DNA from: a virus
Length of the DNA: 23,025 nt
Virus record (IMG/VR): IMGVR_UViG_3300005573_000070
Direction: 5' to 3' (one strand)
This document shows, one piece after another, positions 1 through 14,845 of this stretch (the first letter of the stretch is position 1; every line of letters starts with the position of its first letter). Below the pieces are notes generated by a model that made no database searches, had not been told where the DNA came from, and worked only from the letters and a program-made list of their open reading frames with translations. The position numbers were made by a program, and so were the translations under genes.

Positions 1-88
1 TAATTGTGGTATTACAAATGGTAAGTATTCATCATATGTGTCTGTGTCAGTTGTATCTCTGTATATGGTGTGGGTCTTTGGTGTGTCA
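1..88. repeat. Direct repeat identical to 10080..10167 (may extend past the left edge)
   Basis: taattgtggtattacaaatggtaag...gggtctttggtgtgtca matches 88/88 by eye at an offset of 10079. Confidence 0.95.
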
Positions 89-1200
89 GTACTCTGGTCG
101 TAGTTTACTGTAATTCCGGTTGTAGTACTGGTAACACGTACTTTGTCAACAGTAAACGGGTCAGTACTGGTATATGTATAAGTAACTGTAGCCGGACCGA
201 TAGAAGTACTGAAAGTAAAGGTTCTACTGTCGATCAGTTCGTTGTCCGGATTGTAGATTGCTATAGTAAGATCCTGATTCTGACCAGACACGTTTACCGC
301 GATCCGTATATAGACTTCTGTGGTTGTAAACGGGGTGTATTCTAATACCAAAGGATCTGTTTCCGAAACTGTTCTAAATTCGCCTTCTCCCAGCAAATCT
401 TTTACAGCATATTTGTAATATTTGAAATTAGTCTCTGTTAAAGATGATATACCATTGGTGTGGTAAACAGTTTGATGTTTTGTTATTTCACCAGCAAGTA
501 ACGTCTCTCCTTTTACGTATGAAATTTGTAACCTACTTCTATCAAGAGTTAAACTGTACTGACCTGACGAGTTTGTTAGGACGAGATCACCTAAAATAAT
601 GTATGAACTACTAACGGTCCAGTTTGGGTTGGTGTCGCTCTCTTCGAAATCTTTCCAAATACCGCCGCTTCCCAGTTGTGATGGTGCCGTAGAACGAACA
701 GTATCTACTTTGTAACCTATCGCATACCCAGCTCGTTCCCTCGTGTACCGTTTTTTGTACGTTTCAGGATCTATAGTGTAAACGTTCTCGTCATAGTCTT
801 TCGCGTATAACAAGAACAACGTAATGTACTGGGTCTGACCAGATGGTACTGTGACAGGTATTTGAATGTTCCTACATCCGGTTGATTTTGGGCATTCTCC
901 GTTTAACAGGTTCTTAGCCGGATTTAGCTCGTTATAGGTAGTGGTATCGTCACTGAGTATTTCAATACGTCTGCCGTTAATGTACGCAACTCCAGCAAGA
1001 ACGTTTACGGTTAATATACCAGTCTGTGAGTTGTACACAGTATCGGAGATTTTGAAATGGTCAACACTAAGAACACCGTCCGAATATAGGTCGGACGACC
1101 TCGCTTTTAACTGTTCCTCAGCCGATTCTCCAATATAATTGAGATCGTCAGATGTTGGTTCTTGTAAGTCATAAAATATTGATTTGTTTTTCGCCGCCAT
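1..1200 (-). CDS. Tail fibre protein, paralogue of 8109..11261; 3' end lies outside the window (400 codons visible; not in the ORF track)
   Basis: Manual translation from the ATG at 1200 gives MAAKNKSIFYDLQEPTSDDLNYIGESAEEQLKARSSDLYSDG...ILSDDTTTYNELNPAKNLLNGECPKSTGC...HTNGISSLTETNFKYYKYAVKDLLGEG...DTPKTHTIYRDTTDTDTYDEYLPFVIPQL with no stop to position 1. It is colinear with the N-terminal ~394 aa of the 1050 aa fibre (MTTKSKSVFYDLQEPVKDDFNYIGD...). A GGAGG lies about 11 nt upstream. Confidence 0.9.
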   Translation of the reverse strand, partial: MAAKNKSIFYDLQEPTSDDLNYIGESAEEQLKARSSDLYSDGVLSVDHFKISDTVYNSQTGILTVNVLAGVAYINGRRIEILSDDTTTYNELNPAKNLLNGECPKSTGCRNIQIPVTVPSGQTQYITLFLLYAKDYDENVYTIDPETYKKRYTRERAGYAIGYKVDTVRSTAPSQLGSGGIWKDFEESDTNPNWTVSSSYIILGDLVLTNSSGQYSLTLDRSRLQISYVKGETLLAGEITKHQTVYHTNGISSLTETNFKYYKYAVKDLLGEGEFRTVSETDPLVLEYTPFTTTEVYIRIAVNVSGQNQDLTIAIYNPDNELIDSRTFTFSTSIGPATVTYTYTSTDPFTVDKVRVTSTTTGITVNYDQSTDTPKTHTIYRDTTDTDTYDEYLPFVIPQL

Positions 1201-1201
1201 T

Positions 1202-2278
1202 TTACCTATCCCCTCCAACTATTACAAGAGCCTGGTTGGAACGGCTCAACAACCCATCCTTCTGTGAAAACAAAAGGATGTTTATGGCTCCGTTTAAATC
1301 TGCATTCGTCCTTCTCCCGCAAGAATTACATACTAGTAAACTTCGTCTTGGTCTTTCTGTATCCAGCGAACCACAGAAATGACACATCTTACTAGTATTT
1401 TTAGGATCCACATATACAACATCTATGCCATTTAGTTTGCATTTGTACTCCAAAAAGTCTTGGAACATCCTGAAAGGGAACACATTATTGATTAGGTAGT
1501 TTACATCTTTCCCTTTACTTGTTCCTTCTTTTCTAGAACTTGACTTTCTGATATTAGTTAAGTTCTCTAATATAATCTGGGAACCTCCCATTTCTATTAG
1601 ATACTTAACTAATTCAGAAGTCAACTTGTGGAAGAAGTCTTTACTATAATTCGCTAATTTCTTTTTTTGTTTATGTTTTCTATACTCCATCTTTTTATGA
1701 ACGTATTGCTTTAGACTATATCTTTTACCATTTGATAGAGTTATATTGTCAGCGTTTATATCCATTCCTAACTTCTGGTTCCCTTTTACATTACCCTGTT
1801 CCGGTACTTCACAAATAAAGTATATTCTCCAGTTGTTGTTTATCTTCTTTATTTCAATCCTTTTTATTTCAGTTACTTCTTTCAATTTATTGATGGTTCT
1901 TAATCCTTCTAATGGATAATTTCTCTTACAAATCCTTATCCAGGCATTGTAATAACCTTCTGTGAACTCCATATCAAAATTATGACGATCGAAGGTCAGT
2001 GGTATGTTCAATCTCTTTACCTTAAACAATTTACCAGCTTTAACCGAACTCAATACCTTGTTTCTTACATCTTCAATCAAGCTTGAGTATAAAAATGGGT
2101 ATTTTGCTTTTATCTTACCATATGTGGCCTTGTGTACTTCAAGTCTTCTGTATTCTCTGGTTGCTTTGATATACCGGAGAATATACCTAGCTATTACCTG
2201 AACATATCTATACTGTTGTTCAAGAAATTCCAACTTCCCTTTATTTCCTTTTAAATTACAATAATATGTTAGTTTCAT
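1202..2278 (-). CDS. tnpB: RNA-guided endonuclease TnpB (IS200/IS605 OrfB, Cas12f-like size), 358 aa
   Basis: RuvC-I LGMDIN, RuvC-II IILENL, YVDPKNTSKMC, zinc ribbon CHFC...CNSC and RuvC-III NADLNGAINI are all present. The D-E-D triad is intact. Confidence 0.93.
   Translation of the reverse strand: MKLTYYCNLKGNKGKLEFLEQQYRYVQVIARYILRYIKATREYRRLEVHKATYGKIKAKYPFLYSSLIEDVRNKVLSSVKAGKLFKVKRLNIPLTFDRHNFDMEFTEGYYNAWIRICKRNYPLEGLRTINKLKEVTEIKRIEIKKINNNWRIYFICEVPEQGNVKGNQKLGMDINADNITLSNGKRYSLKQYVHKKMEYRKHKQKKKLANYSKDFFHKLTSELVKYLIEMGGSQIILENLTNIRKSSSRKEGTSKGKDVNYLINNVFPFRMFQDFLEYKCKLNGIDVVYVDPKNTSKMCHFCGSLDTERPRRSLLVCNSCGRRTNADLNGAINILLFSQKDGLLSRSNQALVIVGGDR
1224..1293 (-). ncRNA. Candidate TnpB omega/reRNA scaffold overlapping the tnpB 3' end
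   Basis: The minus strand folds as a three-way junction: GAGCC(1290-1286)/GGCTC(1232-1228) closes CATCCTTTTGT-TTTC-ACAGAAGGATG (1280-1255, 11 bp) and GGTTG/CAACC (1254-1250/1238-1234). One pair is a U-G wobble only on the minus strand. The position matches where TnpB reRNAs are known to lie. Confidence 0.5.
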
Positions 2279-2341: not shown

Positions 2342-3220
2342 TTAACCTTGGATGACCTCTCTTAGCTTCTCAAAAACGATTTCCGCACCTATTTTCATAC
2401 AATCGTAGTCATAATTACATTCGGGTACCTTTCCCAAATGCGATGCGAAATCTGATATATGACATGGTCTCTCTGGACAGATACATTTATCCTTTGCCAA
2501 ATTTATGTTGTGTTTGTATCCGAGACGTTCCGAGGATGTACCCCCAAATAAGACAACGCCTTTTTTATCAAAAGCGGCCGACAAATGGTTCAAGAAACTG
2601 TCTATAACTACGAAACTTTCACAATACTTCATCAATGGAAAGACTTGTCTCCGATTTAAATGGCTCATTTTTATAACGTTTCTTAGTACTGGTTGTTGCG
2701 GTAACAGTACTTGTATAATCTTTATGTCCAGGAATTCTTTGACAAAAAGGTCTGCGAACTTCTGCGCTTCGTCAACTGGCCAGTCTCGGTTAAGATTTGG
2801 ACCATTACCGGGCCCGCCAGATATTTGTAACAATATATATTTACCGACCTCACGCCTGTATCGCAAAATCTCGTCTTCTTCTTGTGGAGTTAGAAAGATC
2901 AATGGTTTCATTTCCTGGTCATATTCAATGTCTAGAACTTTACAAAACGCTTCTATGAGATGTTTTTTCTGAAATCGGTACTCATAAGTCAAATATGGTT
3001 CGATCCGTTTAACAGGAGTACTTTTCAAATAGTCATCATACAAATATGGGTGTTGAAAATGAAAATTTCTGTAAACAAACTTGTTATAAAAGAACACTTC
3101 TGGATAACCACTTACAATTGCGATCTTACCATATTTTTCGTTCAGTTTCTTGGCCAAGGCTGATAAAGCTATCTGTTTACCAAGACCACCATCTGAAATT
3201 ATAGCCAAATCAAGGTTCAC
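2342..3220 (-). CDS. Glycosyltransferase family 9-like (heptosyltransferase-like, GT-B fold), 292 aa
   Basis: N-terminal GGLGKQI loop, YILLQISGG, WP motif, VIDSFLNHLSAAFDKKGVVLFGGT (the GT9 DS...H.AAA....V.LFG.T motif) and a C-terminal Cys cluster ending CMKI. GTG start with AAGGAG upstream. Confidence 0.85.
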   Translation of the reverse strand: MNLDLAIISDGGLGKQIALSALAKKLNEKYGKIAIVSGYPEVFFYNKFVYRNFHFQHPYLYDDYLKSTPVKRIEPYLTYEYRFQKKHLIEAFCKVLDIEYDQEMKPLIFLTPQEEDEILRYRREVGKYILLQISGGPGNGPNLNRDWPVDEAQKFADLFVKEFLDIKIIQVLLPQQPVLRNVIKMSHLNRRQVFPLMKYCESFVVIDSFLNHLSAAFDKKGVVLFGGTSSERLGYKHNINLAKDKCICPERPCHISDFASHLGKVPECNYDYDCMKIGAEIVFEKLREVIQG

Positions 3221-3252: not shown

Positions 3253-6200
3253 CTAACCGGCGTAATAGAACACAGCTACCATGGTCCACTTAAAACCTTT
3301 TTCAGGATCTACTTGTATTGTTGACCAGTCAATATTTTCTGCTGCTTTGCCAAGTGTGTAGTTGTGAACGATGTCATCCCCTTGCTTCATCGCAAAACCA
3401 GGAACATCAGAAGTTGTTAACAAATCACCGATTTCGATATTACCCAGCTCATTTTCTTTGACTTTTACTAAACCTTCACCAAGTGAGTTTACAGTTGCCC
3501 AGTTAAATTTTTGTGTTGTATATCCTTCTTTATAAACCCAGTGGTCACAATTTTCACAACCTAGATAAACATTGTATACGCCCATGACTCGTTTGTCGCA
3601 AGGGATTGTAGTTTGAGATATTTCAGGAACAATTGACGAAACGCCGTCACATCTCTTAAAGCGTACCTCTTTCACTACAACAACATCACCTGGCTGAAAC
3701 TCACCTTGAGAGTATATTGTGTCGTGAGCGCCTGTAAAAGGTCCGTAGTTTGTTCCTGGACCTGCTGCATAGAAGTCGTACGCACAATTCCCACCCCAAC
3801 CAACAACACCACAACTATTAGCAGCACAGCTAACACCAACAACACCACAACTACTAACCTCAAAGACAACACCAACAACACCACAACTGCTAGCAGTATA
3901 GCTAACACCAACAACACCACGACTACCAGCATTATAGCCAACACCAGCAACACCTTGAGGATCACCTACACCATAAACACCGGTGCCAGAAGAAGATTCG
4001 CCCCATACGCCCCAACCATAACAAGTGGTACTCACAATACCATAACTGCTAGCACTAGTATTGACATTAGTAACACATACAGCGGCTGTACCGCCTGACA
4101 CAACATGCAAAGGATAGCTTGGCGTTGTCGTCCCGATGCCGACATTGCCTGTACTTGTAATGAAAACTCTATCTGTATTATTCGTTCTTAAACTCAAAGT
4201 ATAATTGTCTAGTGTTCCAATAAAGGCATTTGCTCCTGCTTGAAGACCAATATTTCCTGTAACTGTTAGTTTTTGAGAAGGTGTCGTCGTCCCGATGCCC
4301 AGCCTTTTATTCGTATTATCCCAGAATAAGTTAGCATTATCTTGAGATATCAGACCATTTGAACCGGCAAACAAGATAGAACCTGAAGTTAAGGATGTTG
4401 ATATCAAATTTGTCCCTTTTATATTACCATTAACTTCCAGTCTTTCACTTGGCGTTGATGTAATACCAATACCAACATTACCACCATTAGGTTGCAAAAG
4501 GAGACTATATGGTGTTGCAGTACCATCAATACGTTGAACCTGTTGAAAAACATTACCACTACTGAGAACTCCCATAAGAAATCCATAGTTACCTGGATCG
4601 TTACTCACTTTCTTTAAAAGAGCAAAACTTCCACCGTTACTTCCTAAGGCAGGTACCGTATCATCTGAAGTAATTGTAATGCCGAACTTATTCCCTGGCA
4701 AGCTTGTACCAATACCAACATTGCCAAGTATCCAAGAATTACCAGAAGCAGATATTTTATTAACGTAGGCAGTAGTGGCAGTTGGAGGTGTTCCAGAGGT
4801 AAAGGTTAAGGAACCATTATCGGCTATCGAAGTCGAAGTCGTTTCATAATATGAATTTTCTCCGTTAGAACTGGTTCCTCTCCATACTCTGTATTTTACT
4901 GCTCCAGTAACTGCTGACCAAGACACATTTATTGTTCCAGCAGTTGTTCCTCCATTCACTGTTGCTGATACTTCACTTGATAATATTGTCCAACCTATAC
5001 CATCTGATGCTGATATCTTGTAATAATATGTTCCATTTAACGTTCCACCTGATGAAGTTGAAGCTGTAACTCCTGTTGGAACTGACATTTCTACAGCAAA
5101 GTTAGAACCTTGCGACAGAACCAGTTTCTCTTGTGGATATGTTATAATACCAATACCAACATGATCGCTTGCGGTAGTCAGGTATACTCTTCCTGTATCG
5201 GCGGTCCATCCTGCAGCAGAAGTAGGTTGAGCATCTAAAGTTAACCAGACAGTACCATTATATCCTAGGAAATTAGATCCGTTCCATTTGATAGTACCAG
5301 CAATTGGCGGCGAACTGTCATCACCAATTTGTAACTTACCGTTGACCGTCAATTTCTGCGAAGGTGTTGCTGTACCAATACCAACATTACCAGAAACATC
5401 AATAGTTATACCATTATTTGTACCAGTAGTTAAATATAATGGTCTTAAAGTACCAGTACCAGATGTTGTTGTTAATATCTGGAATCTGTTGTTGTTTGTA
5501 TCATATCCTATATTTAATCTTTCATAATTTGTACCACCAATCTGGTCTATGTTTAAACTACCACCACCTAAATATAACGATTTCCATCTGTAGCTTGTTG
5601 ATCCTAAATCATATGTGTTGTCTATATTTGGACCAGTATTGCCATCTATTTGTAACTTGAAATTGGTTGGATTCGTACCAATACCGACGTTACCCATTAT
5701 ATATGAATTTCCAGTCCCAGCTACTTGTAAAACATCAGCAGTATAAATTGTTCCGCCTTTACTAACCGCAAATTTATTAGCAGTATTAGCAGCATTTCTA
5801 ATTTGTATGCCGTCATAAGATGGATTATTATCAGTTGCAGGAACCCATCTTATGAAATTATAGTCGCCAGTGTAATGAAGTGCATAATACGGGTTTGTTT
5901 GTCCTGTGATCAAAATAGAATCTGTTATATGTAATTTAGCTTGCGGTATTGTCGTCCCGATACCCAATCTTTTATTTGTATTGTCCCAAAACAGGTTAGC
6001 ATTGTCTTGAGATATCAGACCATTTGAACCAGAAAACAGGATAGAACCTGAAGTTAAAGATGCTGATATCAAATTTGTTCCTTTTATATCACCATTAACT
6101 TCTAGTTTATATCCTGGACTAGTTGTACCAATACCAACATTACCAGAAGTATCAACAACAATCTTGTGCAACTGTCTCAAATCAACAACACTAGTAATAG

Positions 6201-7209
6201 CAGTTGCAGAAGTAATTACTTTTGCTAACCTAATTGAATCTGGTGCTACAGGCGGAGCATCTGCCCCATTATCAACTTCGGTAAAGATATAAGTTCCATC
6301 TCCTTTTAAGTCAACATAGGTATCTTTTAATGCAGTGTATGTATGAGAAGTTGTACCTTTTACAATTCTCCTGCCCATTACATAGGCAACACCGGCTGAT
6401 ATATCTGAAGTCAAAGTTGAAGAAGTAGCAGGTAGTAGTCCAGAAATAACTGTATCAGAGAAAAAATCGCTGGTATGAAGTAGCATCGTTTGGGTGTCAC
6501 TTCCATAACTTTGAGATATAGGTCCGTTAATAGTTATCCCTGCAAAGGCAGGAGATGTTACAGTATAAACACTGAGCTGTTCTGACCCATCAGCTCCAGT
6601 TTGTTTTGTTATTGTGATATTATCGCCTGCGATGATCTTGTTCTGTAAGTAATCGGCCATGGTATCAGTTGAAGATACTTCGACCTTACCACCAGGAACT
6701 AAGAATATCTCACTAAATGCTATACCGTCCCTTTTCGAAAGGTCAACGTTCTCTGATGTTAACGTAAAAGTTCTAGAAGAGTTCGCCTGACCTTCTAGTA
6801 CAGGTATTATTATATTACCTGTAAATTCCGGGTTTTCATCAAGATCAGTTGCCCTCGACAATTTGAATGGTCTGTTACTACTACCAACATCATCCAGAAC
6901 GTATATACCATTCTGACTTGTATCAGTCTGGTCCTTTATAAGGACACGATCATTGGGAGTAACAGTGACTCCGTCTATTGTAGGGAATGGTCCATTGGAA
7001 GTACCTTCAAGGACCCACTTGTTGTTGTTCGTGTCATAGTAATAGTTAGCACTAATGTTTGTAGTAGTAGCACATTTGACAGCTTGCTTTACAACCCATA
7101 GCCTAGAAGGTAAGCTCTTTTCAAGATTGTTAATTGCCTCAATTAATGGTACGTGGTCAACTAAGTAATGATATGTAACAAGACCTTTTTTAACTTCGAC
7201 CGGCGCCAT
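3253..7209 (-). CDS. Long modular tail fibre/adhesin, 1318 aa, with a probable C-terminal autocleaving chaperone-type domain
   Basis: N-terminal phage fibre domain (VKCATTTNI...TIDGVTVTPNDRVLIKDQTDTSQNGIYV...RATDLD); nine GNVGIG/LGIGT/HVGIG joints; an FN3-like segment (YYYKISA...VSWSAVTGAVKYRVWR); 12-aa GVVGV repeats; C-terminus FTGAH...VNSLGEGLVKV...IEIGDLLTTSDVPGFAMKQ...TLGKA resembling peptidase-G2/IMC-type domains. GGAGG upstream. Confidence 0.85.
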   Translation of the reverse strand: MAPVEVKKGLVTYHYLVDHVPLIEAINNLEKSLPSRLWVVKQAVKCATTTNISANYYYDTNNNKWVLEGTSNGPFPTIDGVTVTPNDRVLIKDQTDTSQNGIYVLDDVGSSNRPFKLSRATDLDENPEFTGNIIIPVLEGQANSSRTFTLTSENVDLSKRDGIAFSEIFLVPGGKVEVSSTDTMADYLQNKIIAGDNITITKQTGADGSEQLSVYTVTSPAFAGITINGPISQSYGSDTQTMLLHTSDFFSDTVISGLLPATSSTLTSDISAGVAYVMGRRIVKGTTSHTYTALKDTYVDLKGDGTYIFTEVDNGADAPPVAPDSIRLAKVITSATAITSVVDLRQLHKIVVDTSGNVGIGTTSPGYKLEVNGDIKGTNLISASLTSGSILFSGSNGLISQDNANLFWDNTNKRLGIGTTIPQAKLHITDSILITGQTNPYYALHYTGDYNFIRWVPATDNNPSYDGIQIRNAANTANKFAVSKGGTIYTADVLQVAGTGNSYIMGNVGIGTNPTNFKLQIDGNTGPNIDNTYDLGSTSYRWKSLYLGGGSLNIDQIGGTNYERLNIGYDTNNNRFQILTTTSGTGTLRPLYLTTGTNNGITIDVSGNVGIGTATPSQKLTVNGKLQIGDDSSPPIAGTIKWNGSNFLGYNGTVWLTLDAQPTSAAGWTADTGRVYLTTASDHVGIGIITYPQEKLVLSQGSNFAVEMSVPTGVTASTSSGGTLNGTYYYKISASDGIGWTILSSEVSATVNGGTTAGTINVSWSAVTGAVKYRVWRGTSSNGENSYYETTSTSIADNGSLTFTSGTPPTATTAYVNKISASGNSWILGNVGIGTSLPGNKFGITITSDDTVPALGSNGGSFALLKKVSNDPGNYGFLMGVLSSGNVFQQVQRIDGTATPYSLLLQPNGGNVGIGITSTPSERLEVNGNIKGTNLISTSLTSGSILFAGSNGLISQDNANLFWDNTNKRLGIGTTTPSQKLTVTGNIGLQAGANAFIGTLDNYTLSLRTNNTDRVFITSTGNVGIGTTTPSYPLHVVSGGTAAVCVTNVNTSASSYGIVSTTCYGWGVWGESSSGTGVYGVGDPQGVAGVGYNAGSRGVVGVSYTASSCGVVGVVFEVSSCGVVGVSCAANSCGVVGWGGNCAYDFYAAGPGTNYGPFTGAHDTIYSQGEFQPGDVVVVKEVRFKRCDGVSSIVPEISQTTIPCDKRVMGVYNVYLGCENCDHWVYKEGYTTQKFNWATVNSLGEGLVKVKENELGNIEIGDLLTTSDVPGFAMKQGDDIVHNYTLGKAAENIDWSTIQVDPEKGFKWTMVAVFYYAG
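3796..3954. repeat. In-frame 36-bp tandem repeat, about 4.5 units (S[CR]GVVGV plus 5 variable residues)
   Basis: The core aacaccaacaacaccacaact starts at 3832, 3868 and 3904 (1 mismatch), with partial copies at 3796 and 3940. The 15-nt segments between cores differ. Confidence 0.9.
4286..4437. repeat. Internal duplicated module A', matching 5951..6102
   Basis: 152 bp with about 16 mismatches counted by eye (~90%). Encodes EVNG[ND]IKGTNLIS.SLTSGSILF.GSNGLISQDNANLFWDNTNKRLGIGTT. Confidence 0.92.
5361..5694. repeat. Module C, shared with 8843..9176 in the other fibre gene
   Basis: 334 bp, ungapped, with about 17 mismatches counted by eye (~95%). Both ends coincide with GNVGIGT joints. Confidence 0.95.
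5951..6102. repeat. Internal duplicated module A, matching 4286..4437
   Basis: Ungapped alignment at an offset of 1665. Confidence 0.92.
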
Positions 7210-7232
7210 TTTTGTTTATCCTCCAAGTTTGC

Positions 7233-7303
7233 GGTCTGGTCCGATAACGGACCTTCTCAGGAACTAAGCCTGAGATAAGGCTAGACCCCAGTCCATAATA
7301 TAT
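7233..7303. repeat. 71-bp structured intergenic direct repeat, copy 1
   Basis: ggtctggtccgataacggaccttctcaggaactaagcctgagataaggctagaccccagtccataatatat; 69/71 identical to 7362..7432; contains two perfect hairpins. Confidence 0.95.
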
Positions 7304-7309
7304 CCTGTA

Positions 7310-7339
7310 TAACTACAAACGGTATTCTCTGGATGTCAA
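7310..7339 (-). promoter_or_regulatory. Possible sigma70-type promoter in the spacer between the 71-bp repeats
   Basis: Perfect TTGACA at 7339..7334. The -10 region is poor (TAGTTA at 18-bp spacing). The implied start near 7304 coincides with the edge of repeat copy 1. Confidence 0.3.
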
Positions 7340-7361
7340 GGTTTAAAGTGATCTGGTCCGT

Positions 7362-7432
7362 GGTCTGGTCCGATAACGGACCTTCTCAGGAACTAAGCCT
7401 GAGATAAGGCTGGACCCCAGCCCATAATATAT
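7362..7432. repeat. 71-bp structured intergenic direct repeat, copy 2
   Basis: Differs from copy 1 at two positions (ctagacc/ctggacc and cagtcc/cagccc). Only 1 nt separates it from the stop codon at 7434. Confidence 0.95.
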
Positions 7433-7433
7433 T

Positions 7434-8108
7434 TCACTTGGATGACTGCTGCTCTGGTTTTGTCCCAGAGTTCCCCTTCGCAAGACCAGAATCATTTAAT
7501 CTCTGACCGCTGTTTAGTTTTTCTGGTTCCTCGGACTTCAACAACTGTTTACCGCTTTGTAATATCAAGTCATACAAATCTTTCTCCCGTGAAATAGCTT
7601 CAAGGCTCAAGACCGCATCATTCTTACCATTTAGTAAGTTTAACAGTTTCTTCTTGAAATGGTCTTTTTCACAAGATTCGAATTCTTCTCTGGTCATTTT
7701 CCCGATCTTCTCTAAAACGGGGTAAAGAACCTCAACTTCTCGTATTGCGTCTTTGACCAACTTTCTGATATAAGGAATCTCTGATTTTTTGCGATCTATC
7801 TCTATTTGGATAAGTTCTCTTTCTAGCGGATCTGTTTCTGTTTCTAGTTTTCTTTCTAGTTTTTTGATTTCAACTGCTCGTACTCGCAGATCGTAATAAC
7901 ATTCGTTTAACGCTCTCAACCTGTCAATGATCCTTAGCGCAGCGTGTCTATAGGCACGATGTGGAGATAACTCGCCGTCAACAATAGCAAGTCGGTTCTG
8001 GAAGTCTGAATTACCAAACGGTACTTCTTCTACCAGATCAATAACGGTTTTTAAGAATTTTGACACTCCTTCAATAGAATCAATTTCTTTTAGTTCTTTG
8101 TCGCTCAT
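7434..8108 (-). CDS. Hypothetical coiled-coil protein, fibre-associated, 224 aa
   Basis: Starts immediately after the fibre stop (TAG-ATG junction). E/K-rich and helical, with the motif NSDFQ...SPHRAYR. Function not assignable. Confidence 0.8.
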   Translation of the reverse strand: MSDKELKEIDSIEGVSKFLKTVIDLVEEVPFGNSDFQNRLAIVDGELSPHRAYRHAALRIIDRLRALNECYYDLRVRAVEIKKLERKLETETDPLERELIQIEIDRKKSEIPYIRKLVKDAIREVEVLYPVLEKIGKMTREEFESCEKDHFKKKLLNLLNGKNDAVLSLEAISREKDLYDLILQSGKQLLKSEEPEKLNSGQRLNDSGLAKGNSGTKPEQQSSK

Positions 8109-11100
8109 CTATTTAGCCCTTCCTATCCATTGTTTCAACTCCTCAATCTGTCTTTGTTGTTCTTTTATTGCTTCAATCAAAACTGCAACCAATCGTCCAT
8201 AATCAACTGATAAAAATTCTTCTTCTTTGTCAACTTCTTCACCATCTTCAGTTTTCTCTTTATATTGCCGTTTAAATTTAGTAACTACTTCAGGAGCAAC
8301 CTTCTCTGCCTCCTGCGCTATTACACCAAACTCGTATTTTTCTGTATCACAATCAACACCAAGTGTGTTCTTATAAAAATCGTTCCATCTAAATCTAACA
8401 CCTTCTAAGTTCATAACAATGTCCAAAGCATCACTGATTGGTTTTACATCAGCTTTAAACCTTATATCTGATGAAGTTGGAAACGAAGTTGCGTGCGCTG
8501 AACCATTGACATCAAGTTTATATCCAGGTGCCGTCGTCCCGATGCCGACGTTGCCACTTTGTAAAAACGAAACAACTTCTTGATCACTATTATTTACAAA
8601 TCCCAATCTGCCATTAGTATTGAAAAAATTGTAGGATATGTTATTAGTTGTATCCCGTAGCGTAAGCATAACGCCAGCGGACTTTCTTATTCCTAATACC
8701 CCATCTGCAATGGTAAGTTTGTCAAGTGACGCAGTCGTCCCGATGCCGACGTTGCCACTGACTATTAACCCATTTGATGGTGCCGTATTGTTTCCGGCAT
8801 AAGTTCCGATCGCAACACCTCCGTTGACATCCAATTTTGACAAAGGTGTCGCTGTACCAATACCAACATTACCATTTGTATCAATAGTTATACCATTGTT
8901 TGTACCAGTAGTTAAATATAATGGTCTTAAAGTACCAGTACCAGATACTGTTGTTAATATTTGGAATCTGTTGTTGTTTGTATCATATCCTATTGTTAAT
9001 CTTTCATAATTTGTACCACCAATCTGGTCTATGTTTAAACTACCACCACCTAGATATAACGATTTCCATCTGTAACTTGTTGATCCTAGATCATATGTGT
9101 TGTCTATATTTGGACCAGTATTGCCATCTATTTGTAACTTGAAATTGGTTGGATTCGTACCAATACCAACATTACCTTCATTTGTAATATAAATTCTGTC
9201 AGTATTGTTAGTTCTCAAACTTAAACCAAAAGTGTCTAATGTACCAATAAAAGCATCTGTGTTTGTCTTAAGTCCAATATTACCAGCAACTACTAGTTTT
9301 TGGGATAAAGGAGATGTTCCAGTACCAATACCAACATTACCAGAAGAGTCAATTCTTAGTTGTTCAGTATTATTAGTATAAAAGGATAAAGTATTTGTAT
9401 CTGGTCTATCTATACCTACTCCAGAATCAATTATAGATAATACCCTGTTCGGACTAGTTGTTCCAATACCAACATTACCATTATCCAATATAGTTAGTAT
9501 ATTGTTACCAGTACCTCCTTCAAATACTAGTTTTGACTTGCCACTATCGTTTTCAATTCTTATCCTCAATGGAAGATAAGGGATGTTGGCAAACGATGTC
9601 GTGTTAGCTGATAGAACGATTTCTGGAGTTTGAGATGATTGATCGTCTGTTGGTACTATTTCTATTGGGTATTCGGACAGTCTCAGTTTCTTATGACTGT
9701 CTACTAAATACCGGATATCTTTTTGAAGTTCGATACTCAACCCGCCAACGTTGCTAGGTAACCAAGTATTGTTAATACTATACTGTACATTAAGTATAGC
9801 CAAAGCTAGTTTTAATGGGTCCAGTGATGTACTAAATCCAATTGATCCATTTTCGTCCACAACTAGATAGAACGTACCAGTTTGTCCTCCAAAGTCAGTC
9901 TGTGTTAAGTTTTTTAAAACAAAATATTTTTTGTTATCTGTCCATTGTACTGAGGATAGTTCTATTCCTCTGAACAAAAATTTGGTAATTCTCTTACCAT
10001 TTACATACATGAACGATCTGTTTTCAGTTAATGTGTCACGTATCATTATACAGTCACTCTGGTTTATTCCATTGTTGTCTAATTGTGGTATTACAAATGG
10101 TAAGTATTCATCATATGTGTCTGTGTCAGTTGTATCTCTGTATATGGTGTGGGTCTTTGGTGTGTCAACACCATTTACAGTCTTGTAATTTACAGTAATA
10201 TTTGATCCGGTACTACTAACACTTACCTTACCAACCGTAAATGATGTAGTAGATGTGTATGAATAGGTAACTGTGTTGGCGGAACTGGTAAAAGTAAAGG
10301 TCTTGTGGTCGATTTCAGTATTGTCTGTATCATAAATTGTTATGGTTAGGTCTTGATTGGTTGCATTACTTACCGCGATCCGTATATAGATTTCTGTTGT
10401 CGTGATCGGAGAAGTGTAAGTCAACGATATAGGAGTTGATACTGTTCTGAACGAACCCTCTCCCAACAAATCTTTTACAGCATATTTGTAATATTTGAAA
10501 CTAGTCTCTGTTAAAGATGATATGCCGTTGGTATGATGCGTAACTTGGTGTTTTTCAACTTCCTCGGATGGTTGAACTTCTTCTCGCAGAATTATTCGCT
10601 GGCAACGAGTCCTGTCAACGACCCATTCAGAACCTGTGTACAAGAGGTCCGCAATTATGATATAACTATACCCAACGGTCCAACTAGCTGCCGGATCACT
10701 AGAGTTTTCTCTATAGTTTGCCCATACTCCACCGGTGTCGAACTGTTTCGGCAGAACGGGCCTATTATCTCTTGTACCGACAGCGTATCCTATGGCATAA
10801 CCCGATCTTTCTCTTGTGTACCTCTTTCCGTACGTTTCAGGATCTATAATGCAAACATTTTCGTCATAGTCTTTCGCATATAACAAGAATACTGTTACAC
10901 AGTCACTACCAGAACTGACACTAACGGTCACGTCCTTACACCCAGTTGATTTTGGGCATTCTCCGTTTAACAAGTTTTTGACCGGGTTTAGCTCGTTATA
11001 GGTAGTGGTATCGTCACTGAGTATTTCAACTCGCCGGCTCCCAACGTACGCGGTACCAGGTCCGACACTGAACTTTACTGTTTGGTTATTGGAACCAGGA

Positions 11101-11261
11101 TCGATAGTTATCTCGAACGAACTAAGACCTAGGATGCCATCGTTGAAAAGGTCCGCGGCCCTCTTCCTTAACTGGTCCTCTACAGAGTCTCCTATATAAT
11201 TGAAGTCGTCCTTGACCGGTTCCTGTAAGTCGTAGAATACTGATTTGCTTTTTGTTGTCAT
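8109..11261 (-). CDS. Tail fibre with C-terminal intramolecular chaperone (peptidase S74), 1050 aa
   Basis: Directly follows the baseplate wedge genes and has six GNVGIGT joints. The C-terminus SSDIRFKADV...GVIAQEAEKVAPEVV...SVDYGRLVAVLIEAIKEQQRQIEEL is the S74 signature with the S-D-x-R-x-K autocleavage site. Confidence 0.93.
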   Translation of the reverse strand: MTTKSKSVFYDLQEPVKDDFNYIGDSVEDQLRKRAADLFNDGILGLSSFEITIDPGSNNQTVKFSVGPGTAYVGSRRVEILSDDTTTYNELNPVKNLLNGECPKSTGCKDVTVSVSSGSDCVTVFLLYAKDYDENVCIIDPETYGKRYTRERSGYAIGYAVGTRDNRPVLPKQFDTGGVWANYRENSSDPAASWTVGYSYIIIADLLYTGSEWVVDRTRCQRIILREEVQPSEEVEKHQVTHHTNGISSLTETSFKYYKYAVKDLLGEGSFRTVSTPISLTYTSPITTTEIYIRIAVSNATNQDLTITIYDTDNTEIDHKTFTFTSSANTVTYSYTSTTSFTVGKVSVSSTGSNITVNYKTVNGVDTPKTHTIYRDTTDTDTYDEYLPFVIPQLDNNGINQSDCIMIRDTLTENRSFMYVNGKRITKFLFRGIELSSVQWTDNKKYFVLKNLTQTDFGGQTGTFYLVVDENGSIGFSTSLDPLKLALAILNVQYSINNTWLPSNVGGLSIELQKDIRYLVDSHKKLRLSEYPIEIVPTDDQSSQTPEIVLSANTTSFANIPYLPLRIRIENDSGKSKLVFEGGTGNNILTILDNGNVGIGTTSPNRVLSIIDSGVGIDRPDTNTLSFYTNNTEQLRIDSSGNVGIGTGTSPLSQKLVVAGNIGLKTNTDAFIGTLDTFGLSLRTNNTDRIYITNEGNVGIGTNPTNFKLQIDGNTGPNIDNTYDLGSTSYRWKSLYLGGGSLNIDQIGGTNYERLTIGYDTNNNRFQILTTVSGTGTLRPLYLTTGTNNGITIDTNGNVGIGTATPLSKLDVNGGVAIGTYAGNNTAPSNGLIVSGNVGIGTTASLDKLTIADGVLGIRKSAGVMLTLRDTTNNISYNFFNTNGRLGFVNNSDQEVVSFLQSGNVGIGTTAPGYKLDVNGSAHATSFPTSSDIRFKADVKPISDALDIVMNLEGVRFRWNDFYKNTLGVDCDTEKYEFGVIAQEAEKVAPEVVTKFKRQYKEKTEDGEEVDKEEEFLSVDYGRLVAVLIEAIKEQQRQIEELKQWIGRAK
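8533..8759. repeat. Pair of identical 26-bp GC-rich direct repeats (8533..8558 and 8734..8759) flanking one fibre module
   Basis: gtcgtcccgatgccgacgttgccact occurs twice, 201 bp apart, with 17/26 G+C inside AT-rich coding sequence. Confidence 0.92.
8843..9176. repeat. Module C', shared with 5361..5694
   Basis: Ungapped alignment at an offset of 3482. Confidence 0.95.
10080..10167. repeat. Direct repeat identical to 1..88
   Basis: 88/88 match by eye. Confidence 0.95.
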
Positions 11262-11266
11262 AGTTT

Positions 11267-12529
11267 TTATGCGTAAATCTCAAAAATAGGTTGTTTTCTT
11301 CCTTTGTAATAGATATGGTAAATTCTTGATAAAGTCGATTTCACTGTACTGATGTTGTTATCAACAATATCAAGCGGAATTGTGTACCCTTCAAACTTCA
11401 AGGTACTGTTCTGTAAAGTAGAATCAACTTGTATTACAGACCTCTTCACAATAGACCAGTGAGAATTATCAACAACGCCCCACAAGTTACCGTTCTTTTT
11501 CAACAATCTTGGATAATTTGTCCCGCCAACAATAATTTCTTTTATAATGCAGGGTAAATTTGTATTGAATGAAAATGTGTCCGTTATGTTAACAGGAGTA
11601 TCAAACTGTATAGAAACAAACTGTTTCAAGTCATAAAACTTCACCACGTACCCCGCCAGTTTCGCGAAATAGGACAAAAGCGCGGCTATTTCTTCGTTAC
11701 CTTCAAGTGCATAAGACCCGTTTGATTTCTTTAATATGTAATGAATACGATCCGATTTTCCATCTTTGTAAACACCAGGACTGACTTGTATATAATAATC
11801 ATCCAATTGTTCATCGGAGTACTTCGTAAAATACTTACCATAAGTAGAACTTTTACCTGGTAATCTCCACAACGTTTGTTCTCTAGGGTCTACTAAATCA
11901 TAATCACTTCCTGTAAAAGCATCTTTGATCCCGTCAAGAACAGATTTTAACCCTTTCAAAGATCCGCCGTACACGTTTCCCCTGAACAATCCTTTCACTA
12001 TATCACGATACTGGTCGGCACTGACATAAAAAGGTTGGTCGAGTAAAAATCCAAACCTTTTACTCAACCCGTCACCAGGGACCGTTACTATTGCTAACCA
12101 ATCCATATACGTTAACAATTCTTTATACACATCTTCAGAAGACCACGATATCCACGTTAATATAGAAAGTATGTATCTACAGTCAAACTTTCGCTCCGTA
12201 ACGTCTATTATCTGACCACTACTGTCGTAGAAAGAACATGTGAAAGTATTTATCCCTAAGGTTATTACTGGGTTGGACCCTGAAAAATTGTCTATCTCAA
12301 ATTTCACATTTTGAACCGGTACTGGATCATAATGGGTTGTATTTCCGTCCGAATTTGTAATAGTCAAATCGACTGTTTCAGAACCAGGCGGATAAGAATC
12401 AATACTCACAGCATATTTCGAGATATAAGGAATGGCACTAGATCCGATGTCAAACAACACTCTTAAAAACGGGAAACTGTCCAAAATGTCTTTTACAAAG
12501 GTGTCCTCTTCCCAAGTGACGTATATCAT
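11267..12529 (-). CDS. Probable baseplate wedge subunit (P2 gpI-like position), 420 aa
   Basis: Lies between baseplate J and the first fibre, with an ATGA overlap to J. LSKRFGFLL...DQYRDIV...GGSLKGLKSVL resembles the L...G..D..YR..G+..G+ pattern of gpI-like wedge proteins. Confidence 0.6.
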   Translation of the reverse strand: MIYVTWEEDTFVKDILDSFPFLRVLFDIGSSAIPYISKYAVSIDSYPPGSETVDLTITNSDGNTTHYDPVPVQNVKFEIDNFSGSNPVITLGINTFTCSFYDSSGQIIDVTERKFDCRYILSILTWISWSSEDVYKELLTYMDWLAIVTVPGDGLSKRFGFLLDQPFYVSADQYRDIVKGLFRGNVYGGSLKGLKSVLDGIKDAFTGSDYDLVDPREQTLWRLPGKSSTYGKYFTKYSDEQLDDYYIQVSPGVYKDGKSDRIHYILKKSNGSYALEGNEEIAALLSYFAKLAGYVVKFYDLKQFVSIQFDTPVNITDTFSFNTNLPCIIKEIIVGGTNYPRLLKKNGNLWGVVDNSHWSIVKRSVIQVDSTLQNSTLKFEGYTIPLDIVDNNISTVKSTLSRIYHIYYKGRKQPIFEIYA

Positions 12530-13959
12530 ACGATGGTCACCTCAGTCAGGTTTAAGAATTCTATTGGTAACGCCTGGACTGTCTCAACCGGGCCACCTTC
12601 TTTAAGTATCTGTAAGCTGGGTACTGTATCAACACCGGGTACATCTTCAACTACGTTAACCAAATCAGAGATAGCAACTTTACTACCTAACGGTAAGCTC
12701 TTTACATAGTTGACAAGAGCTGTTCGTACATTTTGTTGTACAGTAGAAGGTGAATATTGTGTCAGATATGTTAGTGAACATTTGACTGTAAAATCTAATG
12801 GCCGCGCTTCGCGCACCATTACATCTAGTCCAAGGACTCTGTTTTCTTCCAGATCTAATACTTTTTGTATTTCCGCAACGGTCGCATTATAAGTAATATT
12901 TACTATTATCGACCCGCTCTGGCTACACGTTAGTGTATCGTTTGCTCTGGTACTCCACTCCCATAAAGGATTAGTATCTTTCTCTATCGTAATGGTAATG
13001 GTCCCCGAAGTCGGTTTGACATCACGAACATACATATAGTCCTTTAACAAATCTCTTATTTTTATGGGCGTATTGGCAGAAGGAATGTTTATCTCTCTTT
13101 GAACAGTCAAGATTTGATAATCTCTGATATAAACGTCAACAGCTCCGGTCGTGGCCCGTTGCATGAACGGATCGCCGGGGCCTGCTACGTAAACATCTCG
13201 TACATTATACTGAATAAACAGCTGTTTGTACCCCGGAATTGTACCCAGACGAGTTCCTTTCCATTTCGACTTGATCCTCTCAACTAATTGTTCGTCAGTT
13301 TCCTCATCACTGCCCCCTATTATCGGTAACAAGTTTACCGCGCGGGAATAATTTCCTTGCAGGTAATAGCCGAAGTCATAATCTATCTGTTGTGGTCCAA
13401 TGTTTCCAATACTTCCTACTTGTTCACATTCTACTGTAACAGGAAATCCGTACGTACCAAGTTCTAGTACAAAGTACTTAGCCCAATCATCATCTGATTG
13501 TATGTTAAAGACGAAAGTAGTTACAGGTCTATAGTATATGTTAAAGATCGACCTAACACGATCACTAGGACCTACTGTGTAAGTACCTAAATCGTGACTT
13601 TTGGGTATGTAGTACACAGTCCCAGTGGCTGATCTGGCAGATAACCTTGTCAAAGCATAATCGTTAGCGATGTTCTCGATAACGTTCTTGAGAGTGTTCC
13701 TAACCTCGGTCGGTGATATTCCCAATGCCTCTGATATATCATCAATCCTGCTATCGTCCTTCAATAAAGCTACGATGCCATCTAAGTAATAGATACTCCC
13801 AACGAAATCTCTTGTTTTATCCAGGATCTCCCTTATTATGGACAACGGAAGGACAACAACGTCACCGACAACGGTACCAAGAGACGTATCGATTTCTGGA
13901 TTAAATTGTTTGATCTGGTCAGATATAGTTGTATGCCATTTTATAGGATCGAAAGCCAT
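12526..13959 (-). CDS. Baseplate J-like wedge protein (P2 gpJ / Mu gp47), 477 aa
   Basis: RLSARSATGTV, VECEQVGSIGNI, GGSDEETDEQLVERI, GAVDVYI and C-terminal LPLGSKVAISDLVNVVEDVPGVD. AGGAG upstream. Confidence 0.92.
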   Translation of the reverse strand: MAFDPIKWHTTISDQIKQFNPEIDTSLGTVVGDVVVLPLSIIREILDKTRDFVGSIYYLDGIVALLKDDSRIDDISEALGISPTEVRNTLKNVIENIANDYALTRLSARSATGTVYYIPKSHDLGTYTVGPSDRVRSIFNIYYRPVTTFVFNIQSDDDWAKYFVLELGTYGFPVTVECEQVGSIGNIGPQQIDYDFGYYLQGNYSRAVNLLPIIGGSDEETDEQLVERIKSKWKGTRLGTIPGYKQLFIQYNVRDVYVAGPGDPFMQRATTGAVDVYIRDYQILTVQREINIPSANTPIKIRDLLKDYMYVRDVKPTSGTITITIEKDTNPLWEWSTRANDTLTCSQSGSIIVNITYNATVAEIQKVLDLEENRVLGLDVMVREARPLDFTVKCSLTYLTQYSPSTVQQNVRTALVNYVKSLPLGSKVAISDLVNVVEDVPGVDTVPSLQILKEGGPVETVQALPIEFLNLTEVTIV

Positions 13960-13967
13960 AATTTCTC

Positions 13968-14324
13968 CTACACGCCCGCTTTGAGAGAAATTTCTGTTCC
14001 TTTCTGTGTCGTCACCACAACTTCGTATTCATTTAAGGAGATCTGGTGAATATCAACTGTATCAACAAGCTCGGCCGGGTTGTCAGTTTCGGTCGTATCA
14101 TTATAAAGTTTTAAAATGCGCATAATTTCGTCTTCGTCGAAATTAGTATAGTCCGTTCCATACCCAAATATATGTAAATCAACCGGGGTCAAAAGCAACT
14201 TGACCAAAGACTGTAAAAGCTTTGGTTCGTTCTCCACTGTTACAAATGTTACACCGCTATCTTGTTTGACCGGGACAAGATCAATAAAAGACCTGTTACC
14301 ACACGATACTTTAATATCTTTCAC
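13968..14324 (-). CDS. gp25/gpW-like baseplate (sheath initiator) protein, 118 aa
   Basis: Size, position just upstream of J, and the motif KLLQSLVKLLLTP...GYGTD. GTG start with GGAGG upstream. Confidence 0.7.
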   Translation of the reverse strand: MKDIKVSCGNRSFIDLVPVKQDSGVTFVTVENEPKLLQSLVKLLLTPVDLHIFGYGTDYTNFDEDEIMRILKLYNDTTETDNPAELVDTVDIHQISLNEYEVVVTTQKGTEISLKAGV

Positions 14325-14326
14325 AT

Positions 14327-14845
14327 CTATCCTCCCAAGAGCAATCTTATTAACTTCTGCACTTGTACAAGTTCGGTTATGTCGCTCGAAATAGAACTTA
14401 TCATGCCACTAACAAGATCATTTGTGTAAGTCATTCTTTTAATGTCTTCCGCGACAGACTCAACCTGCCCAACAGTGTCGAGTATAGTGTCGATTGCTGT
14501 CTGGACTGGTTGTCTGATCTCAGGAAATAACTCTAAATATTTAAGAGCGTTACTGGTATCTAACACGGTCAAAACGCTCTTTTTAAAATCTTCGATTGGT
14601 CGTATGACGCTATCAGCCTGGGCACGGAGTACCGACATAACAGCACTGTTTGTAAGTTGTGTTTCTAACAAAGCGGCCTGTTGTTGAGCGTATTGAGTAA
14701 TTGCCATTGCAATGACACTGTTTATTGCACCTAGTATTGTACTGCCTAACCGCAACAAAGCATCTTTTGTTGTCTGGGGTACATCTTTTGGCGGTAGTTC
14801 TACCTGGTCAATGTTCCCCAAAAGATCGTCATCTTCTATTGACAT
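14327..14845 (-). CDS. Hypothetical helical protein, about 172 aa
   Basis: The ORF track starts at GTG 14851, but GGAGGT (14859..14854) is 8 nt from the ATG at 14845, which is the likelier start. Packed against the gp25-like gene. Confidence 0.75.
   Translation of the reverse strand: MSIEDDDLLGNIDQVELPPKDVPQTTKDALLRLGSTILGAINSVIAMAITQYAQQQAALLETQLTNSAVMSVLRAQADSVIRPIEDFKKSVLTVLDTSNALKYLELFPEIRQPVQTAIDTILDTVGQVESVAEDIKRMTYTNDLVSGMISSISSDITELVQVQKLIRLLLGG

Follow-up and report, generated by a model that had tools for sequence, protein, structure and literature searches.

The DNA examined here (IMG/VR virus record IMGVR_UViG_3300005573_000070; 23,025 nucleotides (nt), hereafter the window) comes from an uncultured myovirus-like phage and covers its tail and baseplate module, in which there are three fibre genes, called B, A and B'. 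Genes A and B are divided into modules by short joints that encode the motif GNVGIG or a variant of it, and the coding DNA of this motif is a 17-26 nt island of exact identity between modules that are otherwise unrelated. The order of the modules differs between related genes, and the points where homology begins or stops cluster at the joints. We consider it likely that, in the course of evolution, short-homology recombination or gene conversion at the joints has reshuffled these fibres, among paralogous genes as well as from phage to phage. We prefer this explanation because it is the most economical one.

Positions and spellings of the joints

We found 15 joints in genes A and B, and all of them are direct repeats, lying on one strand (the coding, minus strand) and in one reading frame. 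GNVGIG is encoded by twelve of them, six in gene A and six in gene B; of the remaining three, two encode KRLGIG and one DHVGIG (the coordinates of joints and modules are collected in Table 2). The joints are written in two spellings. The AT-type spelling is an 18-mer, GGTAATGTTGGTATTGGT on the coding strand and ACCAATACCAACATTACC on the plus strand, which is exact at six joints and one or two bases off at four further joints; these 10 matches with at most two mismatches stand against 0.01 expected from shuffled sequences. The GC-type spelling is a 23-mer, GGCAA[CT]GTCGGCATCGGGACGAC, which occurs at three joints against 0 expected, and partial copies of it lie at 4279-4308 and 5944-5973. A first-pass annotation of the window had reported 15 joints, in two spellings and in two genes. 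All its positions hold and both genes do carry joints; what it overlooked is the third fibre gene, B', whose start is near position 1200.

Regarding the identity between joints, the exact shared runs were 17-25 nt for pairs of AT-type joints and 17-26 nt for pairs of GC-type joints, and at most 8 nt when one joint of each type was compared. The segments flanked by joints are otherwise unrelated and fall into separate families by DNA similarity. The shaft modules are bordered by AT-type joints, and modules u2, E and u4, near the tips, by GC-type joints. In all three genes that end in S74, module E is preceded by a GC-like joint.

Module order in related fibre genes

A protein search with the gene B product (P0002) gave four relatives, and the contigs compared here, L121, L122 and L123, are metagenomic phages. 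L121 has two B-type genes, the 224-amino-acid (aa) gene that also lies between genes B and A in the window, and an A-type gene, and a single B-type gene is present in L122 and in L123. We cut the genes at their joints and clustered the pieces by DNA similarity, which gave the module map of Table 1.

Table 1. Module map of the fibre genes (a slash marks a joint)
Gene	Modules
Window gene B	C/D/A/B/u1/u2/E
Window gene A	G/F/u3/B/H/I/F/A/u4
Window gene B' (read through near-identical contig L125)	C'/B...
L122 gene B	C/D/A/u5/E
L121 gene B1	C/B/H/I/u6
L121 gene B2	C'/D/A/u8/u9/E
L121 gene A	G/A/B/F/...
L123 gene B	C''/u11

The map holds seven different gene architectures, and the partial genes B' and L128 add anchor-to-module junctions; in L128, which is more distant, the same ...ILDN/GNVGVG junction is followed by yet another module. 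Module A has four different successors, B and F have three each and the C-type anchor has at least four. The block B/H/I lies in gene A in the window and in gene B1 in L121. Module order is thus not kept in L121, L122 and L123.

The modules shared between phages are 85-96% identical, and therefore the exchange appears evolutionary and not programmed. Module B is present in three copies in the window phage, at 93-97% identity. In L121, a stretch of 323 nt bounded by joints at both sides is 100% identical between genes B1 and A, which points to a very recent copy made from one of these genes to the other within the genome.

Four contigs from other samples (L124 to L127) match the window from position 1 to about 5600 at 99.9-100% identity, a range that takes in the neighbours of gene A and its distal 2.4 kb. 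Therefore, the architecture H/I/F/A/u4, followed by the GT9-like gene, tnpB and B', is stable. All four contigs end or switch inside module B, the triplicated repeat.

The tip of gene A (residues 1133-1319) and the GT9-like gene are found on a B-type anchor in L123. Tip and gene have 80% DNA identity to L123, where they follow the B-type fibre and the gene lies at 13669-14550. The GT9-like gene travels with the gene A tip and may be a tip-specific assembly or modification factor. Near the same tip, five tandem 36-nt repeats at 3799-3978 encode ...SCGVVGV... units. The homology to the L123 fibre tip begins inside this array, at gene A residue 1133, and therefore the array is a swap point of another kind, distinct from the GNVGIG joints.

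Breakpoints of homology

We compared the seven genes by blastn and counted the internal endpoints of the high-scoring segment pairs with at least 80% identity and at least 150 nt. No more than 15 nt separated 52 of the 80 endpoints from a GNVGIG joint, against 5.8 by random placement (maximum 15 in 5000 simulations). These endpoints are not mutually independent, yet the enrichment at joints is large. Most of the other endpoints lay about 10-20 nt past the RLGIG half joints.

At four junctions, namely A/B of window gene B, C/B of L121 gene B1, and G/A and B/F of L121 gene A, the left homology stops 0-11 nt after the joint and the right homology begins 0-11 nt before it. The two homologies overlap, and therefore the switch is confined to about 18-29 nt that are common to both partners. 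At joint 9159-9176 the homology to L122 and L121 gene B2 stops, and the homology to window gene A and to L121 genes B1 and A begins. Furthermore, homology to the E module of L122 and L121 gene B2 begins 1 nt before joint 8533-8555, and homology to the anchor of L121 gene A stops 2 nt after joint 6127-6144. In the hybrid joint 5677-5694, identity to the gene B copy of module B is present only from nt 9 onward, which is the pattern that a crossover inside the joint would leave.

The first-pass annotation had described duplicated modules as starting or stopping at or near joints, and the endpoints bear this out. Together, the breakpoint enrichment and the different module orders in the relatives also support its view of the joints as sites where modules are inserted, deleted or exchanged in frame, and duplication has taken place there as well.

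Conservation of silent sites

The synonymous positions of the joints, already described as conserved in that annotation, are more alike than codon usage predicts. The exact AT spelling, seen in 6 of the 12 full GNVGIG joints, has a probability of 0.004-0.008 from codon usage, or about 0.03 with gene A's own usage, and for the GC spelling P is about 1e-4. Both would be rare under codon usage, therefore codon bias alone is not the explanation. With the different module orders and the enriched breakpoints, all three outcomes that the first-pass annotation had named as refuting its cassette idea are thus absent. As an internal control we took, from the flanks of the joints, codons that stand in the same register and encode the same amino acid. 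The share of identical codons in the window was 0.54 in joints and 0.37 in flanks.

We also examined loci from IMG/VR, using the degenerate pattern GGN AAY GTN GGN ATH GGN AC. The sample held 120 loci, and 119 of them were analysed, as one was already among the contigs retrieved above. Joint pairs within a locus, with unrelated flanks (about 32% DNA identity), had 4.67 of 7 silent sites alike against 2.75 predicted from local codon usage, and the excess was seen in 36 of 40 loci (p=2e-8). Joint pairs between loci had 2.4 of 7 silent sites alike. The internal control gave 0.69 identical codons in joints against 0.47 in flanks (39 of 48 loci, p=6e-7). Since this sharing within genomes appears in an unbiased sample, the effect is general.

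The exact AT-type and GC-type words each occur in at least 120 viral contigs, and the homology of these contigs to the window covers only 30-77 nt around the motif. We did not take the number of contigs with an exact word as evidence and used the degenerate-pattern sample in its place. Among the matches listed, the contigs with the GC-type word had a median GC content of 0.44, and 41 of 120 were below 0.42.

An extreme case of the same joint is L275 (IMGVR_UViG_3300025317_000141), a 7-kb viral contig with 16 exact GC-type 23-mers. In the window, the mobile shaft modules (4150-6144 and 8874-9479) have a low GC content at third codon positions (GC3), which suggests their origin or circulation in an AT-richer gene pool.

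Structural identity of the motif

The repeat regions matched the Bdellovibrio MAT fibres 8OND (E=2.4e-9), 8OML, 8ON4 and 8OJN in the PDB, and the phmmer alignments to 8OND, 8OML and 8OJN pass through the motif. In one of them NVGIGTTTPSYPLH of gene A is aligned to RVGVGTTAPTSALH of Bd3182 (8OJN). According to Caulton et al. 2024 (PMC10769870), this segment of Bd3182 is the capping loop R656-H669 at the edge of the trimeric beta-helix, and the loop consensus, V-G-G/N-pi-x-x-P-x-x-x-L, is common to T5 pb1, K1F endosialidase and MyRF. In S74-type and MAT fibres the joint motif, judged by these alignments, is the capping loop by which a trimeric beta-helix unit is closed.

The modules start with (I-D-x-S)-G-N-V-G-I-G-T-T-x-P-x-x-K-L. 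As the joint is the start of a structural unit, in-frame swaps there can give a foldable fibre, and swaps at joints are probably tolerated structurally. By similarity to the solved fibres, the individual modules would have a trimeric beta-helix fold. The GNVGIG motif was present in at least 1579 fibre-like proteins of phages, bacteria and archaea.

The variable modules of gene B (B/u1/u2, and in the relatives u5 or u8/u9) directly precede the conserved E module with its S74 chaperone, therefore they lie at the distal end of the fibre. By analogy with other S74 fibres, release of the chaperone, if it takes place here, would leave them as the tip.

Proposed mechanism and alternative explanations

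Each fibre has an N-terminal anchor that is specific to its gene and then a series of modules. In the mechanism that we propose, crossovers would take place at the joint islands by general short-homology recombination, gene conversion or template switching. Partners could be found in the same genome, as paralogous fibre genes, or in co-infecting phages and prophages, and the agent may be the host RecA or an annealing protein of the phage. Every crossover at a joint would automatically be in frame and at a structural unit boundary, so that many recombinants should fold, and selection for adsorption would retain the useful ones. Recurrent exchange would keep the joint spelling uniform (concerted evolution), and longer homology inside common modules would help once a module is present in two genes. 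AT-type and GC-type joints may in effect be two separate exchange pools, because the two spellings share so little exact identity (8 nt at most) and because the former are used along the shaft and the latter near the tips.

Some points weigh against this explanation. Every comparison is between metagenome assemblies, and the support is assembled sequence throughout. Several joints are not independent because larger duplicates contain them or end at them (5339-5638 and 8821-9120 match at 93%, 4280-4462 and 5945-6127 at 85%), and part of the joint identity is inherited with the duplicated modules. The shaft modules D, A, B and F have a GC3 of 0.12-0.20, against 0.37-0.43 in most other genes of the window. 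This third-position bias accounts for part of the AT spelling, and the chance expectation for that spelling is somewhat higher. The two caveats weaken the codon excess but do not abolish it. Neither a recombinase nor an annealing protein was seen in the window or in the 20 kb examined of L123. Finally, selection for foldable products would likewise cluster the surviving breakpoints at unit boundaries, so that homology-driven crossover is not strictly proven.

An explanation built on this last point is that crossovers occurred anywhere without homology and only in-frame junctions at unit boundaries survived, the uniform joint DNA being a by-product of codon bias, shared ancestry and hitch-hiking. 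The motif is in fact a structural unit boundary, and both the GC3 of the shaft modules, which favours the AT spelling, and the inheritance of several joints in larger duplicates agree with it. Nevertheless, we find it improbable, because the junctions are in perfect register and switch within 18-29 nt that are identical in both partners, because the silent sites of joints are more alike than flank sites for the same amino acids (in the window as well as in the 39 of 48 unrelated loci) and because the GC spelling is contrary to local codon usage.

The first-pass annotation had taken the joints for micro-homology or recombinase sites and suggested a shufflon-like repertoire without inversion. 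In a programmed system of this kind, a dedicated recombinase or nuclease would act on the joints at high frequency and produce a fibre repertoire within one population. The number of joints and their fixed spelling are in keeping with such a system, a TnpB nuclease gene adjoins the fibre genes, and the contigs of four samples that end or switch inside module B could reflect heterogeneity. However, contig breaks there are the expected product of a triplicated repeat, the joints are direct repeats of a widespread structural motif, the four independent assemblies keep the near-identity described above over distal gene A and its neighbours, and the shared modules are 4-15% different between phages. 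PHROG and Pfam scans of most of the larger open reading frames (ORFs) of the window (12 scanned) gave no dedicated recombinase and only the TnpB-like protein. In the 20 kb of the L123 contig, with a PHROG scan of 10 unannotated proteins included, none was recognised either; a helicase, RNase HII and other replication genes were seen there. The annotation was thus right that no recombinase is visible in the window, although it missed the TnpB-type nuclease gene, and nothing links this gene to the joints. We therefore regard a programmed cassette system as very unlikely.

Even less probable is that the mosaics are chimeric contigs, produced by assemblers that jumped between repeated joints or modules of co-occurring strains. 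Two observations would fit: in L124 the change from gene B to gene A takes place within a 57-nt identical stretch, and L125, L126 and L127 all end in module B. But the identity at joints is just 17-26 nt, and reads and final assembly k-mers are normally longer than that. Moreover, the junctions recur in independent samples (D/A in three genes, B/H/I in two, H/I/F/A/u4 in four assemblies), none of them breaks the reading frame, and the anchor and tip domains of these full-length genes are intact.

In the L124 contig itself (L124:1-1100, JGI 3300027863), sequence from upstream in gene B (100% identity with window 9177-9898) is followed by gene A, starting in module B. This contig is the only apparent recent recombinant. 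It could be genuine, with a 3.5-kb deletion that has fused two fibres, or it could be a chimera of the assembly, and its switch, being inside module B and not at a joint, is a further point against exchange at joints. As direct evidence of a recent fusion of B and A we set this contig aside, since the 57-nt stretch belongs to the triplicated module.

One could go further and suppose that the spelling itself is selected as a recombination address. The AT and GC words would then be two orthogonal connector standards, which would limit exchange to the shaft and to the tip, respectively, and would let unrelated phages, giant viruses and fibre-bearing bacteria trade modules. We think this unlikely. 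If true, it would be a natural cross-lineage plug standard for trimeric fibres, kept by second-order selection for evolvability.

Comparison with known systems

Recombination at conserved motifs is an established principle, and the locus is a further example of the known reshuffling of phage fibres. The closest precedent is the recombination at glycine-rich motifs of T-even gp38, where the principle is the same. Work by Tetart et al. 1998 and Trojet et al. 2011, cited in PMC12032242, proposes the glycine-rich motifs of gp38 and the His boxes of gp37 as hot spots at which recombination shuffles modules. As in gp38, going by the citing paper, short conserved glycine-rich motifs lie between variable segments, and here the breakpoints between relatives sit on the motifs. 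Unlike gp38, which is a monomeric adhesin with hypervariable loops, the motif here is matched to the capping loop of trimeric beta-helix fibres, and whole structural modules of 40-220 aa have been moved, duplicated and reordered. Moreover, the exchange appears to take place among three paralogous fibre genes of one genome and two mutually non-homologous spellings coexist, although this phage is known from sequence alone.

The fibres share with the MAT fibres and the S74-type phage fibres (Bd3182 8OJN, Bd2133 8OND, T5 pb1 4UW8, K1F 3GW6) the same capping-loop motif, by direct alignment to the solved structures, and the plan, in which a conserved anchor is followed by a beta-helix shaft and a variable tip and the S74 chaperone may be present or absent. 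MAT fibres are encoded by bacterial chromosomal genes, whereas these are phage genes. In the sections consulted of PMC10769870 the motif is treated structurally and the family as a mosaic, and DNA-level joints or breakpoints are not reported there. The motif strings GNVGIG and NVGIGT were not found in the literature searched.

Shufflons and invertible fibre segments (the R64 Rci shufflon, Mu Gin and P1 Cin) also place alternative distal parts on a constant proximal part. Their switching takes place within one population and depends on a dedicated site-specific recombinase and on inverted sites. Here, on the contrary, the joints are direct and not inverted, and no dedicated recombinase was found in the window and the 20 kb of L123.

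The host range of tailed phages is set largely by their fibre tips, and exchange at the joints may accordingly alter it. The locus is an unusually clean natural example, with joints at nucleotide resolution, a module pool of three genes and two spellings that do not cross-react. The capping loop is very widespread and the silent-site excess is also present in unrelated contigs, so the joints mark natural splice points that are structurally tolerated. They could therefore guide the reading of fibre mosaicism in metagenomes, as well as the choice of fusion points for chimeric fibres in laboratory phages.

Gene layout and other features of the window

The long ORFs of the window are all on the minus strand and together form a myovirus-type tail module (Table 2). 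The ORF at the left end is paralogous to the anchor of gene B (59% identity with residues 1-394 of P0002, E=1e-138), and therefore the phage has at least three fibre genes. Its continuation was read in the near-identical contig L125, where the anchor is followed by GNVGIG and then by module B. The C-terminus of gene B carries the Peptidase_S74 chaperone (PF13884, residues 931-993, E=1.6e-16). Gene A has no Peptidase_S74 and ends in a different tip, which resembles the non-S74 MAT subgroup.

INPHARED phages gave no megablast match for 3253-11261, and no close relatives were found in IMG/VR with the two anchor domains as query. A metagenome scan with the anchor alignment gave just two further loci, both distant.

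Table 2. Coordinates of genes, modules and joints in the window
Feature	Coordinates	Strand	Remarks
Tape-measure-like gene	20822-22945	-
Baseplate_J gene	12526-13959	-
420-aa gene	11267-12529	-
Fibre gene B (P0002, 1050 aa)	8109-11261	-	PHROG tail-fibre families; Peptidase_S74
224-aa gene between fibre genes B and A	7434-8108	-	phrog_1409, function unknown; same position in L121
Fibre gene A (P0001, 1318 aa)	3253-7209	-	PHROG tail-fibre families; PDB sequence matches to MAT fibres
GT9-like 292-aa gene	2342-3220	-	weak Glyco_transf_9 match
TnpB-type RNA-guided nuclease gene	1202-2278	-	Cas12f1-like_TNB, E=1.4e-22
Fibre gene B', 5' part	1-1200	-	start ~1200, leaves window (ORF 1-1218); gene B anchor paralogue
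Gene B module C	9480-11261	-	baseplate-proximal anchor
Gene B module D	9342-9479	-
Gene B module A	9177-9341	-
Gene B module B	8874-9176	-
Gene B module u1	8757-8873	-
Gene B module u2	8556-8756	-
Gene B module E	8109-8555	-	final beta-helix turn and Peptidase_S74 chaperone
Gene A module G	6145-7209	-
Gene A module F	5974-6144	-
Gene A module u3	5695-5973	-
Gene A module B	5392-5694	-
Gene A module H	4726-5391	-
Gene A module I	4483-4725	-
Gene A module F (second copy)	4309-4482	-
Gene A module A	4150-4308	-
Gene A module u4	3253-4149	-	tip
AT-type joint C/D	9462-9479	-	last codon GGA, 1 mismatch
AT-type joint D/A	9324-9341	-	exact
AT-type joint A/B (gene B)	9159-9176	-	exact
AT-type joint B/u1	8856-8873	-	exact
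GC-type joint u1/u2	8734-8756	-	23-mer
GC-type joint u2/E	8533-8555	-	23-mer
AT-type joint G/F	6127-6144	-	exact
Half joint F/u3	5951-5973	-	KRLGIG, GC-like 3' half
Hybrid joint u3/B	5677-5694	-	GGT AAC GTC GGT ATT GGT, 2 mismatches to AT type
AT-type joint B/H	5374-5391	-	exact
Degenerate joint inside module H	5149-5166	-	DHVGIG, 2 mismatches to AT type
AT-type joint H/I	4708-4725	-	first codon GGC, 1 mismatch
AT-type joint I/F	4465-4482	-	exact
Half joint F/A	4286-4308	-	KRLGIG, GC-type 3' half
GC-type joint A/u4	4127-4149	-	23-mer

The TnpB-type gene is solo and lies directly upstream of B', with its stop 1 nt before the B' ATG. At the same junction in L121, between fibre genes B1 and B2 (L121:9250-10000), there is only an internally deleted TnpB remnant that keeps residues 1-41 and 310-354 and whose last 123 nt are conserved. 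Therefore, the TnpB insertion is old and common to both phages.

In the gap between the 224-aa gene and gene A there are two 71-nt direct repeats (7233-7303 and 7362-7432), which are 97% identical. Rfam gave no match anywhere in the window, this repeat region included. The 216-nt region that holds the repeats has a predicted fold of -74.6 kcal/mol (z=-3.5 against shuffles), and it is conserved in L121 inside a block that is 89% identical.

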